A DNA stretch of 64,000 nt, taken from assembly GCF_988243305.1 (NCBI RefSeq), contig NZ_OZ547136.1; one strand, 5' to 3'. The notes beneath the pieces are model-generated. The model saw only the letters and a program-made list of their open reading frames with translations. It was not told where the DNA came from and did no database searches. Both the position numbers and the translations under genes were made by a program. This document shows, in pieces, positions 6,291 through 46,479 of this stretch (position 1 is its first letter; each line of letters starts with the position of its first letter).

Positions 6291-6327
6291 AAACCGCGCC
6301 ATGTCTGCATATGGCGCGGTTTCTCTT
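6291..6327 (+). terminator. intrinsic terminator downstream of betT
   Basis: Perfect 11-bp stem aaccgcgccat / atggcgcggtt with 8-nt loop, followed by tctctt, 14 nt after the betT stop. Confidence 0.7.
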
Positions 6328-16964: not shown

Positions 16965-17262
16965 TGCGCATTTGATATGTCTGCAACGGTGAATCGTAAG
17001 AGATTTAAGCCCCAGGGAGTGGGGCGGGAATGGTTTGTTAATGAATGATCCTGAACTTTATAATCTCCCGGCATAATTTCCAGGGGATTATTTGAGAGAA
17101 ATACACAAAAGTGAGTTTTAACAAAGGTATTTATCAGGCCATAAATGTGACCTGCTTCGGATAAAAAAGATTCAGTATCGAAAAACCAATGATACTCTTG
17201 CTGATGGTTATCAACAGTAATTAAGATGTGATTTGTTTTTCCGTAATCGCGAAAATATTCTC

Positions 17263-17673
17263 ATGACCATAAAAGAAAAAATCTCACAAAAATATCCCCA
17301 TGCTTCCTTTTGTACTTTTGGCGATTCAGCAGCGTTGGCCGATCACCTCGCAACGTTGATTGCGACTGGTGTTAAAACAGCTTCCTGTGGTTCGCTGGCG
17401 GGATGTATTGAAGACAACGCATTTCCGCTGATTGGTGAGTATAAGATTGTAGAAAATAGCCGTGGTGAGCCTGTCTGTGTTATCAGAGTGATTGGCCTGC
17501 ATTTACTGCGCTTTTCTGATGTCACCGCGGAGCTTGCCCGTAAGGAAGGTGAAGGTGACCTCAGTCTTGAATATTGGCGTAATGAACACCGTCGTTTTTT
17601 CCAGGCAGAAGGATGCTATTCACCCGAAATGGACGTTATCTTTGAAGAATATGCCCTTATTGACGTTGTGTAG
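17263..17673 (+). CDS. ASCH-domain-like small protein (strain-variable)
   Basis: ORF 17233..17673 (TTG); ATG at 17263 gives MTIKEKISQKYP; not in K-12 at this locus as far as I recall. Confidence 0.6.
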   Translation: MTIKEKISQKYPHASFCTFGDSAALADHLATLIATGVKTASCGSLAGCIEDNAFPLIGEYKIVENSRGEPVCVIRVIGLHLLRFSDVTAELARKEGEGDLSLEYWRNEHRRFFQAEGCYSPEMDVIFEEYALIDVV

Positions 17674-17923
17674 ATAACTATTTTTCTACGCGAAATAAGC
17701 TCACAAACATAAAGTATCGCTAATTTTGTTTATTTTGCTATTTTTTACGTGATGATTGTCACACTTATTGTTACTGCCCGTTTTGTCCATATTTATAACC
17801 AAATTTTTAATAGCTGCCTGAAATAGGGCTGTTTATTCTGCATAAAAATATTCGAAAATTCTTATTCTCTCCAGCGCGCTAATTTGGGCGAACACTTCCT
17901 GACTACCCTGCAATGAGGCTGAA

Positions 17924-18910
17924 ATGATGAATAAACGTTTTGTTATCAATATGGTGTCTTCGCTGTTATTAGGCGCTGCGCTAATTTCTGCGCCGCTCCA
18001 GGCAGCGGAAAAAGTCGTGGTGAATATCTCTAAAGTCGATGGTATGCCGTGGTTTAATCGCATGGGCGAAGGTGTGGTTGAGGCGGGTAAAGCCTTTGGT
18101 GTTAATGCGTCACAGGTGGGGCCTTCAAGTACTGATGCTCCGCAACAGGTTAAAATTATTGAGGATTTAATCGCCCGTAAGGTTAATGCAATTACAATTG
18201 TGCCAAACGATGCCAACGTGCTGGAACCGGTATTCAAAAAAGCGCGAGATGCCGGAATTGTGGTTCTGACCAACGAATCCCCCGGTCAGCCAAGTGCTAA
18301 CTGGGATATCGAAATCATTGATAACGAAAAATTTGCCGCTGAATATGTTGAGCATATGGCGAAACGCATGGGTGGCAAGGGCGGCTATGTGATTTACGTG
18401 GGTAGTTTGACCGTGCCGCAGCATAACTTATGGGCTGACTTGCTGGTGAAATACCAGAAAGAGCATTACCCGGATATGCATGAAGTTACCCGCCGCATGC
18501 CGGTTGCCGAGAGTGTGGATGACTCACGTCGTACCACACTGGACCTCATGAAAACCTATCCTGACTTGAAAGCGGTTGTCTCCTTTGGTTCAAACGGTCC
18601 GATTGGCGCGGGACGTGCAGTGAAAGAGAAACGGGCGAAAAATAAAGTCGCAGTCTATGGCATGATGATCCCTTCACAGGCGGCATCACTGATTAAAAGT
18701 GGTGATATCACCGAAGGGATTACTTACGATCCGGCCTCTGCAGGTTACGCACTCGCGGCCGTCGCCAGCACGTTGCTGAAGGGTGAAGAGATCAAACCTG
18801 GATTAGAAATGGAGAATCTCGGTAAGGCCGACGTAGATATGGATAAGCGAATTATCCGTTTCCATAAGGTATTACTGGTCAACAAAGACAATATCGACTC
18901 ACTTTATTAA
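17924..18910 (+). CDS. periplasmic sugar-binding protein, LsrB/RbsB-like (CUT2 ABC family)
   Basis: 328-aa ORF with signal peptide ...APLQA|AEK; C-terminus VLLVNKDNIDSLY resembles LsrB-type proteins. Confidence 0.8.
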   Translation: MMNKRFVINMVSSLLLGAALISAPLQAAEKVVVNISKVDGMPWFNRMGEGVVEAGKAFGVNASQVGPSSTDAPQQVKIIEDLIARKVNAITIVPNDANVLEPVFKKARDAGIVVLTNESPGQPSANWDIEIIDNEKFAAEYVEHMAKRMGGKGGYVIYVGSLTVPQHNLWADLLVKYQKEHYPDMHEVTRRMPVAESVDDSRRTTLDLMKTYPDLKAVVSFGSNGPIGAGRAVKEKRAKNKVAVYGMMIPSQAASLIKSGDITEGITYDPASAGYALAAVASTLLKGEEIKPGLEMENLGKADVDMDKRIIRFHKVLLVNKDNIDSLY

Positions 18911-18920
18911 TCCATTTCTT

Positions 18921-18945
18921 CGGGGCGAAAGCCCCGATTCTTATT
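18921..18945 (+). terminator. intercistronic hairpin (attenuator/terminator-like)
   Basis: cggggc-gaaa-gccccg perfect stem with GNRA loop followed by attcttatt, between the binding-protein and ATPase genes. Confidence 0.5.
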
Positions 18946-18958
18946 GCCAGGGGATGCT

Positions 18959-20443
18959 ATGGAAACCTTCCTTTCCCTTCGTCATATCAACAAAACGTTT
19001 CATGCCACGCGAGCGCTGCGCGATGTTTCTCTCGACTTTATGTCGGGTGAGGTGCACTGCCTTGCCGGGCAAAACGGCTGTGGTAAATCGACGTTGATTA
19101 AAATTATGTCCGGTGTTTATCGCCCGGATGAGGGGGCGGAAATTACGCTTGGTGGGAAAAACTGGTCAAAGCTGACACCCGCCGCTTCGGTGGCGCAGGG
19201 GATTCAGGTGATTTATCAGGACCTCTCTTTATTTCCTAACCTGAGTGTCTGGGAGAATATCGCCGTGAATCACTATCACCACGGTCTGTTTGTTAACCGC
19301 CGTCGTCTGCGTGAGGTGGCGCAGGCGGCAATGACCAGTATTAACGTCACATTGCCACTGGATACGCTCGTTTCTGAGCTTTCAATTGCCCGCTGTCAGC
19401 TGGTGGCAATTTGCCGTGCACTGGCGCAGGACGCACGGTTGATCGTGATGGATGAACCAACCGCTTCGCTGACCCATCAGGAAGTGCAAGGGTTATTACA
19501 GGTGGTGCATCAATTGCGGGAACGCGGGATCTGCGTGGTCTTCGTCAGTCATCGTCTGGAAGAAGTGATGGAAGTTTCCGACCGTATTTCAGTGCTGAAA
19601 GATGGTGAGCTGGTCGGGACCTTTCCGGCCGCAGAGATGACCACAAAACAACTCAGTTTTCTGATGACCGGCCAGGAGTTCGAATATCAGGTACGAGAGT
19701 TGTGGCAGGGAAAATCCAGCCCCCCGGTGCTGGAGGTGCGTAATTTAAGTCGTCATGGGGAATATCAAAATATTAACTTGCGGGTGGAAGCGGGCGAAGT
19801 GGTGTCGATTGTTGGCCTGCTTGGTGCGGGGCGCACGGAATTATGTCTGAGTCTGTTTGGTATGACCCGACCGGATGCTGGTGAGATCCTCATCAACGGT
19901 CAGCCGGTTACACTGCATAGTAACCAGGACGCCATCCGCCACGGTATTGGTTATGTTTCGGAAGATCGCATGTCGCGCGGTTTGGTGATGGCGCAATCTA
20001 TTGAAGACAACATCATTAGCACTGTTTTTCACAAGGTAAAAGATCGCTTCGGCTTTCTGAGTGAAGCTAAAGTGCGTGACCTGGTGGACAGGCTAATCAA
20101 GGCATTGACCATCAAAGTCTCTGACCCACATCTCCCGGTGAATACGCTTTCCGGGGGTAACGCGCAGCGAGTATCGATCGCCAAATGGCTGGCGATTGGG
20201 CCACGACTGTTGATTCTCGATAGCCCGACTGTCGGTGTTGATATCGCCAACAAAGCAGGAATATACGGCATTATCAGCGATCTGGCGGCTCATGGCATTG
20301 CGGTATTGATGATCTGCGATGAAATTGAAGAAGCGTGGTATCAAAGCCACCGGATTTTGGTAATGCAAAAAGGTCAGATCACCCATAGCTTCCTGCCTGA
20401 CAGCAGTTCTCAGGCCAGGATTGCGGAGGTGGTAAATGGCTGA
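18959..20443 (+). CDS. sugar ABC transporter ATP-binding protein (two nucleotide-binding domains)
   Basis: ORF 18944..20443; ATG at 18959 (METFLSL); Walker A GQNGCGKST; duplicated NBD typical of RbsA/LsrA. Confidence 0.85.
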   Translation: METFLSLRHINKTFHATRALRDVSLDFMSGEVHCLAGQNGCGKSTLIKIMSGVYRPDEGAEITLGGKNWSKLTPAASVAQGIQVIYQDLSLFPNLSVWENIAVNHYHHGLFVNRRRLREVAQAAMTSINVTLPLDTLVSELSIARCQLVAICRALAQDARLIVMDEPTASLTHQEVQGLLQVVHQLRERGICVVFVSHRLEEVMEVSDRISVLKDGELVGTFPAAEMTTKQLSFLMTGQEFEYQVRELWQGKSSPPVLEVRNLSRHGEYQNINLRVEAGEVVSIVGLLGAGRTELCLSLFGMTRPDAGEILINGQPVTLHSNQDAIRHGIGYVSEDRMSRGLVMAQSIEDNIISTVFHKVKDRFGFLSEAKVRDLVDRLIKALTIKVSDPHLPVNTLSGGNAQRVSIAKWLAIGPRLLILDSPTVGVDIANKAGIYGIISDLAAHGIAVLMICDEIEEAWYQSHRILVMQKGQITHSFLPDSSSQARIAEVVNG

Positions 20444-21407
20444 ACTGAAAAAACGCCATGAATTCTGGCTGGCATTACTGATTGTGGTGCTGTTTGTTGG
20501 CCTTGCCTGGCGCAGCGACGAGTTTCTGACATTCGGTAATTTGTACGATCTCGCCAATAACTATGCCATGTTGACTATTCTCGCCTGTGGTTTGTTTGTG
20601 GTGTTGATTTCCGGTGGAATTGATATTTCGTTTCCAGCAATGACCATCATTGCCCAATACGGCATGGTGCTGTTGCTGCAAAAAATTGGTGGCAACTTCG
20701 CTGTCGCGTTTGCCCTGGCGGGCGGCATCGGCATTTTACTTGGCTTAATTAACGCCTTACTGGTTAATCGCCTACGGGTGCCTTCTATCATCATCACTAT
20801 CTCGACGCTGAATATTTTCTATGGCCTGCTGTTATGGTTGAGTAAAGGTGTGTGGCTGTACGACTTTCCGCCGTGGTTTGAGCAGGGGGTTATGTTGTTC
20901 AAGTACACCGATGCTGATGGCTATGACTATGGCCTTGGTCTACCGCTGATCGCCATGATTACGGTGGTGCTGCTAACAGCGTTTATCATGAATTTCACCA
21001 GTGTAGGGCGCAAAATTTATGCCCTTGGCGGGAACCGCGAATCAGCCAGTCGCATCGGCTTTAGTGTGCTGAAACTGCAACTTTTCGTCTATGGCTATAT
21101 GGGATTGATGTCTGGTGCTGCGGGTGTAGTGCAGTCGTGGACGGTGATGACTGTCGCCCCCGATTCTCTTCTGGGTTATGAGCTGACAGTACTGGCTGCG
21201 GTGGTGCTTGGCGGCACTAGTTTGCTCGGCGGGCGCGGCACGTTAACCGGTACTTTGCTCGGCGTGGTGTTGTTGGCAGTGATGCAAAACGGGCTAAATT
21301 TATTGGGAGTCTCGTCTTACTGGCAAACATTGATCACCGGCATCATCATCGTTGCCAGCATTAGTGCCACGGCGTGGAGTCAGCATCAGAACCGGAGTCT
21401 GCTATGA
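20436..21407 (+). CDS. sugar ABC transporter permease
   Basis: 323-aa multi-TM ORF; start overlaps ATPase stop by 8 nt. Confidence 0.85.
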   Translation: MAELKKRHEFWLALLIVVLFVGLAWRSDEFLTFGNLYDLANNYAMLTILACGLFVVLISGGIDISFPAMTIIAQYGMVLLLQKIGGNFAVAFALAGGIGILLGLINALLVNRLRVPSIIITISTLNIFYGLLLWLSKGVWLYDFPPWFEQGVMLFKYTDADGYDYGLGLPLIAMITVVLLTAFIMNFTSVGRKIYALGGNRESASRIGFSVLKLQLFVYGYMGLMSGAAGVVQSWTVMTVAPDSLLGYELTVLAAVVLGGTSLLGGRGTLTGTLLGVVLLAVMQNGLNLLGVSSYWQTLITGIIIVASISATAWSQHQNRSLL

Positions 21408-22360
21408 AAAAATCGTGGCGTAACAACGTTGAGTTTTACTTGATCGGCCTGCTGGTGCTAACTGTTGCAGCCTTCAGCATTACTATGCCGGAGATTTTCT
21501 GGTCGATAAGTAATTTCCAGTCCGTCGCTTCGCAAATGCCCGTGCTGGGCATTCTGGCGTTGGCTATGGCGGTGACCATGCTTTGCGGTGGCATTAACTT
21601 GTCAATTATAGCCACTGCTAACGCCTGTTCACTGGTGATGGCGTGGGTGGCGACTCAGTATCCACCGGGTATTGCTACGGTTGTCGCTACGCTGCTGGCG
21701 GGCGCTGGCGCGGCGGTGATAATCGGTTTATGTAACGGCGTATTGATTGCTGGTATTCGAGTGTCGCCAATTCTTGCAACACTCGGGATGATGACGTTGC
21801 TCAAAGGGGTAAATATTCTGGTGACAGGCGGTAGCGCCATTGCCAATTATCCCTCATGGGTGCTGTGGTTGAATCATGCACAGTGGTTCGGTGTTCCGCT
21901 ACCGATGTGGTTGTTTACCGCAGTGTCGCTAGGGCTGTGGATATTGCTGGAGAAAACGCCGCTCGGTAAATCCATTTATCTGATTGGTTCTAACGAACGA
22001 GCAACACTTTACTCCGGCATTAACACTCGTCGGGTGCTGATTTGGGTGTATGTCATTTCCGCCTTGCTTTGTGCGGTAGCGGCATTTTTGATGATGTCGA
22101 AACTCAACTCGGCTAAGGCCTCTTATGGCGAATCGTACTTGCTGGTGTCAATCCTCGCGGCAGTACTCGGCGGGGTTAATCCGGACGGCGGCAGCGGGCG
22201 GATAATTGGTATGGTGCTGGCGCTGTTTCTTCTGCAAATTATTGAAAGCGGCTTCAATATTCTCGGTATAAGCCCCTACCTGACGATGGCCTTATGGGGA
22301 ACGTTGCTGCTCTGTTTCATTCAGGCTCGCGGCATGTTGGGGCTGGATCGGGTGGTTTAA
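21404..22360 (+). CDS. sugar ABC transporter permease
   Basis: ORF 21374..22360; ATG at 21404 (MKKSWRN) overlaps upstream stop as ATGA, ggag 6 nt upstream. Confidence 0.82.
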   Translation: MKKSWRNNVEFYLIGLLVLTVAAFSITMPEIFWSISNFQSVASQMPVLGILALAMAVTMLCGGINLSIIATANACSLVMAWVATQYPPGIATVVATLLAGAGAAVIIGLCNGVLIAGIRVSPILATLGMMTLLKGVNILVTGGSAIANYPSWVLWLNHAQWFGVPLPMWLFTAVSLGLWILLEKTPLGKSIYLIGSNERATLYSGINTRRVLIWVYVISALLCAVAAFLMMSKLNSAKASYGESYLLVSILAAVLGGVNPDGGSGRIIGMVLALFLLQIIESGFNILGISPYLTMALWGTLLLCFIQARGMLGLDRVV

Positions 22361-22446
22361 ATATTGGCTATATTCAATGGACGCGTTTTGCCGCGATGAC
22401 ATATCAGGCATCGCCAAATACACATAGCTAATCAGGAGTAAACACA

Positions 22447-33768: not shown

Positions 33769-35065
<1,297 letters not shown>

Positions 35066-40058: not shown

Positions 40059-41213
40059 ATGCTGCTGGTTCTGGTGCTGATTGGTCTTAATATGCGACCA
40101 CTGCTCACCTCCGTCGGACCACTGCTACCGCAATTGCGTCAGGCGAGTGGAATGAGCTTTAGCGTGGCAGCCCTGTTGACCGCTCTACCGGTGGTTACCA
40201 TGGGCGGGCTGGCGCTGGCCGGAAGCTGGCTTCATCAGCATGTCAGCGAACGTCGCAGCGTCGCCATCAGTTTGTTACTGATTGCCGTCGGTGCATTGAT
40301 GCGTGAGCTTTACCCCCAAAGTGCGCTGCTGCTTAGCAGCGCACTGCTTGGTGGAGTGGGGATCGGCATCATTCAGGCAGTGATGCCTTCGGTAATTAAG
40401 CGGCGGTTTCAGCACCGTACGCCACTGGTGATGGGGCTGTGGTCCGCGGCTCTGATGGGCGGCGGTGGACTTGGTGCCGCCATTACGCCCTGGTTAGTTC
40501 AACATAGCGAAACCTGGTATCAAACACTCGCCTGGTGGGCGCTGCCTGCCGTTGTTGCGCTCTTTGCCTGGTGGTGGCAAAGCGCCCGCGAGGTCGCCTC
40601 TTCTCACAAGACAACAACCACTCCGGTTCGCGTGGTATTTACTCCCCGCGCCTGGACGCTGGGTGTTTACTTCGGTCTGATTAACGGCGGTTACGCCAGC
40701 CTGATTGCCTGGTTACCCGCTTTCTATATTGAGATTGGTGCCAGCGCGCAGTACAGCGGTTCCTTGCTGGCATTGATGACGCTTGGGCAAGCAGCAGGGG
40801 CATTGCTGATGCCTGCTATGGCTCGCCATCAGGATCGGCGGAAACTTTTGATGCTGGCGCTGGCGTTACAACTGGTGGGGTTCTGCGGCTTTATCTGGCT
40901 GCCGCTGCAATTGCCGGTATTGTGGGCAATGGTGTGTGGATTAGGTCTGGGCGGCGCATTTCCGCTCTGTTTGCTGCTGGCGCTCGATCACTCTGCGCAA
41001 CCGGCTATTGCTGGCAAACTGGTGGCGTTTATGCAGGGGATCGGTTTTATCATCGCCGGGCTTGCTCCCTGGTTTTCTGGCGTGCTGCGTAGTATCAGTG
41101 GCAATTACTTGATGGACTGGGCGTTTCATGCGCTGTGCGTCGTTGGGCTGATGATCATAACCCTGCGTTTTGCACCAGCACGTTTTCCGCAGCTGTGGGT
41201 CAAAGAGGCATGA
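40059..41213 (+). CDS. cynX: MFS cyanate transporter
   Basis: ORF 40032..41213; ATG at 40059 gives MLLVLVLIGLNMRPL (384 aa). Confidence 0.9.
   Translation: MLLVLVLIGLNMRPLLTSVGPLLPQLRQASGMSFSVAALLTALPVVTMGGLALAGSWLHQHVSERRSVAISLLLIAVGALMRELYPQSALLLSSALLGGVGIGIIQAVMPSVIKRRFQHRTPLVMGLWSAALMGGGGLGAAITPWLVQHSETWYQTLAWWALPAVVALFAWWWQSAREVASSHKTTTTPVRVVFTPRAWTLGVYFGLINGGYASLIAWLPAFYIEIGASAQYSGSLLALMTLGQAAGALLMPAMARHQDRRKLLMLALALQLVGFCGFIWLPLQLPVLWAMVCGLGLGGAFPLCLLLALDHSAQPAIAGKLVAFMQGIGFIIAGLAPWFSGVLRSISGNYLMDWAFHALCVVGLMIITLRFAPARFPQLWVKEA

Positions 41214-43282: not shown

Positions 43283-46479
<3,197 letters not shown>

Follow-up and report, generated by a model that had tools for sequence, protein, structure and literature searches.

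A hairpin anchored to the stop codon of the substrate-binding protein gene in the Aau L-arabinose importer operon of Escherichia coli

The genes of the operon considered here are separated by a spacer at one junction only, and within this spacer lies a compact, G+C-rich RNA hairpin. The question raised by the locus is whether this hairpin sets the level of the message upstream of it relative to the genes downstream and, if so, by ending transcription, by protecting an RNA 3' end or in some other manner. The window (the whole stretch of DNA analysed, 64 kb in length) is a segment of the E. coli chromosome carrying betABIT, pdeL and yahB to yahJ, followed by yahK to prpR. A five-gene accessory island is situated between yahJ and yahK; it is absent from K-12 and is found in 2219 of 5426 complete E. 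coli genomes. The features of the island are listed below.

17263-17673, ASCH-domain gene, first of the five island genes.
17674..17923, + strand, AT-rich region upstream of the substrate-binding protein gene; contains the L-arabinose/AraC-dependent aau promoter.
17924..18910, + strand, gene for the periplasmic substrate-binding protein (SBP) of the Aau importer, ortholog of Z0415/ECs0374, from the open reading frame and its translation.
18959..20443, + strand, ABC ATPase gene, ortholog of Z0416 plus Z0417, split in EDL933.
20436..21407, + strand, permease gene 1, ortholog of Z0418; 8-nt overlap with the ATPase stop.
21404..22360, + strand, permease gene 2, ortholog of Z0419; 4-nt overlap with permease gene 1.

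By sequence, the operon is one already published: the Aau (accessory L-arabinose uptake) system of O-island 17, Z0415-Z0419 / ECs0374-0378. The published RT-qPCR primer for Z0415 is an exact match to 17952-17973, the published aau cloning primers fit the two ends of the operon to the first and last base, and O157:H7 genomes are 98.7-98.9% identical to the window in the aau region. The Aau operon is induced by L-arabinose via AraC and is without a regulator of its own (PMC11127945; PMC2323221). A segment of roughly 300 bp upstream of Z0415, cloned by Cottam et al., gave an arabinose- and AraC-dependent reporter; the transporter adds to the gut fitness of EHEC, and the operon has been linked to virulence-related arabinose signalling (PMC11127945).

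In the RefSeq annotation the SBP gene starts at the second ATG (17927), and its stop codon, TAA, occupies 18908-18910. The start of the ATPase aligns at residue 1 in most orthologs; a later start annotated in two genomes was regarded as an annotation choice, the reading frame upstream being intact. The SBP/ATPase junction is the sole junction of the operon with a spacer. The remaining genes overlap, and the ATPase and permease genes are presumably translationally coupled. A search for a promoter-like match that might serve as an internal ATPase promoter returned none on the + strand from 17065 to 21272. The elements of the junction are as follows.

18911..18958, + strand, 48-nt intercistronic spacer between the SBP stop and the ATPase ATG.
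18920..18937, + strand, RNA hairpin TCGGGGC-GAAA-GCCCCGA, 7 bp of which 6 are G-C, dG -14.3 kcal/mol.
18938..18945, + strand, U-rich tail TTCTTATT, 6 T in 8, longest T run 2.
18949..18954, + strand, Shine-Dalgarno-like AGGGGA, ending 4 nt short of the ATPase ATG at 18959.

The initial annotation of this DNA had placed cggggc-GAAA-gccccg in the 48-nt spacer after the SBP stop, and direct reading agrees, with exact coordinates. The 5' arm spans 18920-18926, the loop GAAA 18927-18930 and the 3' arm 18931-18937; the core stem pairs cggggc (18921-18926) with gccccg (18931-18936) and is extended to 7 bp by T18920-A18937. The GNRA cap that had been described is likewise present: the loop is a GNRA tetraloop, C-GAAA-G at 18926-18931, with a Watson-Crick closing pair, C-G. 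The stem starts 9 nt past the SBP stop codon. With ±30 to ±150 nt of flanking context the six core pairs have probabilities of 0.99-1.00; the hairpin is real and folds robustly. It has the G+C-rich stem and short loop of an intrinsic terminator (7 bp, 6 G-C, 4-nt loop), and it also has the placing of a decay barrier of the malE-malF or puf type, that of a stable stem-loop directly 3' of the SBP cistron inside a polycistronic operon.

The U-rich stretch said to follow the stem is there, with 6 T in 8 positions, but its longest run is 2. Nor does its T content set it apart, since the 10 nt preceding the stem, TCCATTTCTT, are as T-rich. The tail at 18938-18945 could be where a leaky intrinsic terminator releases the transcript, or it could offer an endonuclease a single-stranded, A/U-rich site of entry. 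A function on the opposite strand was considered and rejected, as the reverse-complement tail, AGAAATGGAT, is without a U-tract and no gene lies there.

In the E. coli sequence by itself the hairpin exceeds chance only weakly. Compared with dinucleotide shuffles the spacer fold has z = -1.4 to -1.5 (p ~0.07), and 2.5% of the 40-nt windows in the 64 kb are at least equally stable, at 163 separate sites. Perfect stems with a minimum of 6 bp, 5 or more of them G-C, occur at ~30 sites in the 64 kb, which gives a chance of ~2% for one in a given 48-nt spacer. A terminator-pattern scan of 14 kb yielded 17 sites against 14.7 ± 4.9 in shuffles and hence no enrichment; the best of the sites scanned is the spacer hairpin. 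A terminator discriminant of the d'Aubenton-Carafa form, of use for ranking only and not as evidence, gave +13 for the E. coli site and values above 0 for 3 of 63 orthologs.

The hairpin occurs once in the window, and an Rfam 15 scan of all 64 kb at gathering score returned no match. Queried with the 54-nt spacer, sensitive blastn located it once, and only once, in each of 2217 E. coli genomes, always at 95% identity or more; a dispersed repeat of the REP, BIME or ERIC kind was rejected on the grounds that the spacer is single-copy in each of these genomes. Eight diverse E. coli alleles differ in the spacer at 18957 only, and the most divergent copy found has lost C18921 and keeps 5 G-C pairs. 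Since the spacer is almost invariant within E. coli, there is no covariation signal within the species. The case for a real, selected hairpin thus rests on the orthologs and on published expression data, not on the window alone.

The ortholog set comprised 67 loci from Enterobacterales, Pasteurellaceae, Vibrio and Aeromonas, with 64 distinct spacers. In all 67 the SBP gene precedes the ATPase gene and the two are 47-287 nt apart. Nearly all the spacers contain a strong, G+C-rich hairpin, and in 61 of the 67 operons it is compact, at -12 kcal/mol or better. The stems themselves are diverse. By shared 6-mers, a permissive threshold, the 5' arms fall into 14 classes, and by shared 8-mers into 31; this classing was done on 5' arms only, and shared 7-mers over extended hairpins chained all together. 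The arm CGGGGC is that of a clade containing E. coli, Klebsiella, Franconibacter and Symbiopectobacterium; examples from elsewhere are GCAGAGCCGG in Yersinia, ATATGGGTTC in Pasteurellaceae, GGTGGCGCC in Aeromonas and TCAGCCCCG in Vibrio. Among the 64 distinct spacers, 78% fold better than 95% of their dinucleotide shuffles (median z -2.8), and when the 40-nt folds of the ~7-kb locus are ranked by stability, the spacer hairpin comes first in 29 of the 64 loci and among the first three in 51. The E. coli hairpin ranks among the weakest of the family.

Pairing is maintained through sequence change in two groups alignable by sequence. In the Yersinia group (11 sequences) a 13-bp helix is 95.8% paired, with 5 pairs changed on both sides, and slid controls pair at 31-48%; in the Pasteurellaceae (12 sequences) compensatory changes affect 4 of 8 pairs. 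Within the E. coli clade the only change in the six-pair core is one G-U; stem top and loop differ between members (GAAA, CCTGC, GCGA, CCA, ATT), and the sequence CAGGGG(A/G)TG is invariant among E. coli, Klebsiella, Franconibacter and Symbiopectobacterium. Loops of GAAA, GCGA or GUAA are found in only 5 of the 67 orthologs and loop length runs from 3 to 18 nt; because the loops vary in this way, the GNRA loop is not a conserved feature. From these comparisons it is the structure, and not the sequence, that is conserved at the SBP/ATPase junction.

The position of the hairpin is fixed with respect to the upstream gene. In the 30 spacers of at least 70 nt, the gap from stop codon to stem has a median of 12.5 nt and lies within 6-16 nt in 27, and the distance from the stem to the ATPase start ranges from 22 to 217 nt. 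Over a wider set, a stop-to-stem spacing of 6-16 nt was found in 47 of 53 orthologs, independent of spacer length. The hairpin is therefore anchored to the SBP stop, which suggests that it works where the SBP message ends and not where ATPase translation is initiated. Among the orthologs aligned, the sequence upstream of the hairpin shows no conservation beyond coding needs.

A U-rich tail is a much less constant companion of the stem. Counted over the 9 nt after the G-C core in 63 orthologs, at least 5 T are present in 21 and at most 3 in 27; only 9 have a T run of at least 4 and only 5 have at least 6 T. The E. coli tail, with 6 T in 8-9 nt and interrupted, is among the most U-rich of the family, and the nearest relatives with a homologous stem are without a U-rich tail (CTTAACC in Klebsiella, CGCTAAC in Franconibacter). 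As only about a third of the orthologs have such a tail, the conserved feature is the hairpin and not a terminator, and its conserved role is best understood as that of giving the SBP message its 3' end and shielding it. Some termination at the E. coli tail is plausible, and termination and protection from decay are not mutually exclusive. In the reporter operons of Wu et al., stem-loops after SBP genes with few U gave 20-96% apparent termination, and the folding energy of the stem-loops also influenced the stability of the upstream transcript (PMC9045158). According to Dar and Sorek, whenever one segment of an E. coli ABC operon is stabilised it is the SBP, and protective structures are present at its 3' end (PMC5927463).

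Expression across the junction was taken from Landstorfer et al., a strand-specific RNA-seq study of EHEC EDL933 in 11 conditions (PMC4048457, Table S4); the O157:H7 spacer is that of the window except at 18957. The comparison covers the five conditions with the aau operon expressed and uses per-gene values at low depth. RPKM values are given in the order LB / pH 9 / 15 °C / nitrite / radish sprouts (all from PMC4048457).

Z0415 (SBP): 76/60/132/206/287
Z0416 (ATPase, 5' part): 6/8/8/8/12
Z0417 (ATPase, 3' part): 4/4/11/8/15
Z0418 (permease 1): 6/3/8/11/10
araF: 43/70/29/95/60
araG: 8/13/9/27/14

From Z0415 to Z0416 the per-gene RPKM falls 7.5- to 26-fold at the SBP/ATPase junction over the five EDL933 conditions, and from araF to araG in the same data it falls 3- to 5-fold. 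The RNA-seq step-down that the initial annotation had proposed to look for is thus present in these per-gene values. The split ATPase gene of EDL933 could enlarge the drop through added polarity or decay; Z0416, upstream of the split, is already low. EDL933 carries this gene as Z0416 and Z0417, and the aau locus of TUV93-0 has been termed 'non-functional'.

Arabinose induces Z0415 26.5-fold, Z0417 43-fold and Z0418 7-fold via AraC (PMC11127945), so the genes past the hairpin still respond to arabinose, and whatever block it may impose can only be partial. The supplementary RNA-seq of Cottam et al. consists of fold-changes only, with no absolute levels (PMC11127945). The larger fold-induction of Z0417 (43x) than of Z0415 (26.5x) is not predicted by a model of fixed ratio between the genes; fold-changes of these two genes say nothing on absolute levels. 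In an older array study, ECs0374 was the only one of ECs0374-0378 among the genes changed at glucose exhaustion, and the supplements of a transcriptome study with bovine contents (PMC8524897) hold no entries for Z0415. The earlier suggestion of a partial terminator or stabilising hairpin that favours the SBP transcript is supported by the step-down, the read-through and the conservation taken together.

On this basis, the hairpin is probably a cis-acting element that defines and protects a short SBP mRNA 3' end, so that SBP mRNA stands about ten-fold or more above ATPase/permease mRNA. Transcription starts upstream of 17924, as the published promoter work shows, and according to the computed folds the hairpin would form about 10 nt past the stop codon essentially always. 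In E. coli specifically, a fraction of the polymerases may terminate in the interrupted U-tract at 18938-18945. Transcripts that read through would be cut by an endonuclease in their poorly protected distal part and then degraded 3' to 5' until the exonucleases stall at the hairpin, as the precedent of malEFG and differential decay suggests. The read-through that remains would supply the translationally coupled ATPase and permease genes. We infer both the causal link from hairpin to step-down and the enzymes involved, and we do so from the observed structure, conservation, anchoring, step-down and read-through. In this reading what is conserved and ancestral is the barrier to exonucleases, by which the 3' end is formed, and E. 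coli would probably have leaky termination in addition.

Several other accounts of the hairpin were weighed against this one. Were it purely a leaky intrinsic (Rho-independent) terminator, the step-down would be set by the efficiency of termination in the U-tract and RNA stability would play no role. The spacer hairpin is, after all, the best terminator-pattern match in 14 kb, its tail belongs with the few in the family that reach 6 T in 9 nt (5 of 63), and low-U stem-loops after SBP genes did give 20-96% apparent termination (PMC9045158). Against this, the U-tract is interrupted (UUCUUAUU, longest run 2) and no richer in T than the sequence upstream of the stem, at most 3 T follow the core in 27 of 63 orthologs, Klebsiella and Franconibacter included, and the K-12 araF-araG hairpin is likewise without a U-tract. 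The hairpin is therefore kept where termination is implausible, and we consider termination as the whole explanation unlikely. The conserved spacing of 6-16 nt from the stop codon also allows a variant in which a ribosome ending on the SBP gene controls the timely folding of the hairpin and hence read-through at a leaky terminator. A ribosome terminating at the SBP stop would have its footprint extend just about to the 5' arm, 9 nt further on. Such gating strikes us as improbable; if true, translation of the SBP would be coupled to read-through into the translocator genes. An equally improbable account is that the hairpin has no effect in E. coli and is a decaying ancestral remnant, the step-down having another cause: poor translation combined with fast RNase E decay of the ATPase/permease segment, or polarity from the EDL933 frameshift. 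It is true that the E. coli hairpin is short and not significant alone, that the ATPase gene is split in EDL933, where absent downstream translation could cause or enlarge the drop, and that Dar and Sorek tie differential decay to ribosome density besides structure (PMC5927463). Yet hardly any variation is seen in the spacer across 2217 E. coli genomes, even the most divergent copy found retains 5 G-C pairs, Z0416 is already low before the frameshift, and family-wide conservation, covariation and anchoring to the stop codon are hard to explain for an element without function.

Two further readings place the action elsewhere than at the 3' end of the SBP message. In one, the hairpin would act on translation, either with its flanks or the CCCC of its 3' arm pairing with the GGGG of the ATPase Shine-Dalgarno or by insulating the cistrons from re-initiation. 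In the MFE fold of 18911-18958 the Shine-Dalgarno is covered by an additional outer helix, CAUUUCU/GGGGAUG. This helix is weak, with three G-U pairs and a bulge of 12 nt; when 18905-18965 is folded, the MFE structure pairs only some of the outer-helix region and accounts for just 7% of the ensemble. RNAalifold on the alignment of the E. coli clade paired CCCC with GGGG in 7 of 7 sequences; this result came from a plain MAFFT alignment, not a structure-aware one, in which the arms are misaligned. Given the pair probabilities of the hairpin it was treated as an alignment artefact. The 3' arm is not free (the core has a pair probability of ~1.0), and in other clades the ATPase start is 22-217 nt away from the hairpin, whose position follows the upstream stop, so that a translational role seems to us very improbable. 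Slighter still is the chance of a stable small RNA, or RNA sponge, that is cleaved out of the 3'-terminal part of the SBP mRNA and ends in the hairpin. A position after the SBP gene and a terminator-like 3' end would be compatible with such a product, as would the link of the operon to virulence-related arabinose signalling. With a stop-to-stem gap of only 9 nt, though, the product would be almost all coding sequence; the window has no Rfam match, conservation upstream of the hairpin does not exceed coding needs, and the U-tail is interrupted, which makes it poor for Hfq binding.

Taken as a probable protector of the SBP 3' end, the hairpin bears on how the locus is studied. The SBP message is set about ten-fold above the translocator message, probably by the hairpin, and this matters for the reading of per-gene aau expression as well as for complementation constructs and the choice of qPCR targets. 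The ortholog series offers a clean natural example in which one position is occupied by 14-31 unrelated stems, anchored to the stop codon and mostly without U-tracts; hairpins after SBP genes are selected for structure, and the U-tract is dispensable. Current understanding is unchanged by the aau hairpin.

Comparable hairpins are known from several other importer operons. At malE-malF, stem-loops are regarded as blocking 3'-to-5' exonucleases once the message has been cut downstream (Newbury et al. 1987, described in PMC5927463). As in aau, the SBP gene comes first, a stable stem-loop lies directly 3' of it and the SBP segment is the more abundant; unlike the aau hairpin, which is single-copy per genome, the malE-malF elements are REP repeats with hundreds of copies, and -52 kcal/mol is listed for malE (PMC9045158) against -14 kcal/mol for the 18 nt of the aau hairpin. 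Wu et al. (2022) described internal leaky terminators downstream of SBP genes in Ruminiclostridium cellulolyticum and gave for E. coli K-12 a list of at least 15 stem-loops after SBP genes (PMC9045158). Among those listed are araF, xylF, mglB, alsB, ytfQ, malE, hisJ and oppA (Table S3 of PMC9045158), and hence all of the SBP-first sugar importers of K-12 (araF, xylF, mglB, alsB, ytfQ). The aau hairpin is missing from the list because K-12 is without the operon. It resembles the terminators of Wu et al. in being a single stem-loop between SBP and translocator genes, with no antiterminator, fewer U than canonical terminators and a fixed step-down with read-through; it differs in that its stem of 7 bp is shorter than the long stems emphasised there and in that termination at aau is itself predicted.

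The closest comparison is with araF-araG of K-12 araFGH, which has the same substrate (L-arabinose), the same regulator (AraC) and the same gene order. Its hairpin, TTCCCCTCTGCA...TGCAGAGGGGG, has 11 bp and -20 kcal/mol and starts 13 nt past the araF stop. The stem is unrelated in sequence to that of aau and no U-rich tail follows it, and the step-down is 3- to 5-fold compared with 7.5- to 26-fold at aau in the same EDL933 data. The gltI-gltJ junction of Salmonella and E. coli, another within an ABC importer operon, likewise has a terminator-like hairpin behind the SBP gene; SroC is made there from the 3' end of the SBP mRNA. SroC is a discrete regulatory RNA with its own conserved sequence, whereas nothing suggests such a product from aau. 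The arrangement is well known and ordinary, and what is new is this hairpin as a further member, one not described in the Aau paper (PMC11127945), which makes no mention of a hairpin, a terminator or stoichiometry. The aau hairpin is of the same kind as those of malE-malF, araF-araG, xylF-xylG and mglB-mglA and as the terminators of Wu et al.

Among the Escherichia coli copies of the locus, the most divergent spacer found between the binding-protein and ATPase genes was that of strain Z1323PEC0010 (L078), where the equivalent of C18921 is deleted and the hairpin stem is left with five G-C pairs and a possible U-G closing pair. In two further copies, from strains Z0117EC0032 (L002) and FDAARGOS_1290 (L006), RefSeq places the ATPase start 81 nt downstream, equivalent to 18959-19040 of the window. 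The ATG and the reading frame upstream of the annotated start are intact in both, and the later start is an inconsistency of annotation, not a mutation.

Among the orthologous spacers, those of L017, L022, L070 and L073, 104-113 nt long, have a tandem pair of strong hairpins instead of one; these loci are from Atlantibacter, apart from a record that bears the label Citrobacter freundii M-21. In Candidatus Symbiopectobacterium sp. 'North America' (L015), a 7-nt deletion has taken out the upper part of the stem together with its loop (CGGGGCGCCCCG) and the hairpin is collapsed, unlike in two other Symbiopectobacterium genomes, where it is kept; the loss may reflect decay in a degenerating symbiont genome. 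Insertions of 60-200 nt are present in spacers from Yersinia and Budvicia (L032, L034, L037, L038, L039 and L041), which measure about 138-287 nt. The L034 and L041 spacers have in common a segment, ...AAGTGATTCGGGTGAGT..., which we take to be ERIC-like, while a second, distinct insert is common to L032 and L037-L039, where it lies downstream of the conserved hairpin. The strongest hairpin of L034, which begins 80 nt past the stop codon, precedes the ERIC-like segment, and the usual hairpin is absent from the L041 (Y. aldovae) spacer.

One 4.7-kb contig (L009, SFEK01000152.1) is labelled 'MAG: Bacteroidales bacterium'. Its spacer is identical to that of the window, as is its binding protein (100%), and its ATPase is 99.6% identical; the contig is almost certainly a binning contaminant of the Bacteroidales metagenome-assembled genome.

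The window contains other long perfect palindromes:
6291-6322, with a 12-bp stem followed by CTCTT
33769-33807, REP-like in appearance (TGTCGGATGCG...CGCATCCGACA)
40320-40345
46141-46168

Further features lie on either side of the hairpin-bearing spacer:
17035-17064, promoter-like TTGTTA-18-TATAAT
17263-17673, ASCH-domain gene, probably Z0414
21273-21300, promoter-like match TTGGCA-16-TAAATT
21404-22446, permease 2 gene with the spacer preceding yahK

In published EDL933 data, RPKM values in LB, pH 9, 15 °C, nitrite and radish sprouts, respectively, were 40, 45, 56, 65 and 38 for the last permease gene, Z0419, and 34, 23, 31, 37 and 36 for yahK/Z0420 (PMC4048457). Expression of Z0419 thus parallels that of yahK, unlike Z0415-Z0418, which suggests an internal promoter driving the last permease gene and yahK jointly. 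A terminator-like hairpin was sought in the 86-nt gap at 22361-22446 and none was found. The ASCH-domain gene is probably Z0414, as judged from gene order; if so, it is induced 3.7-fold by L-arabinose according to published RNA-seq (PMC11127945) and is expressed at 8-27 RPKM under LB-type conditions (PMC4048457).

The product of 17924-18910 is labelled 'autoinducer 2 ABC transporter substrate-binding protein' in RefSeq. This contrasts with the experimental assignment of the operon that holds it as an AraC-dependent L-arabinose system, Aau (PMC11127945). Against the NCBIfam models, the binding protein scored far under the cut-off for both RhaS (137 bits versus 342) and LsrB (111 bits versus 384).
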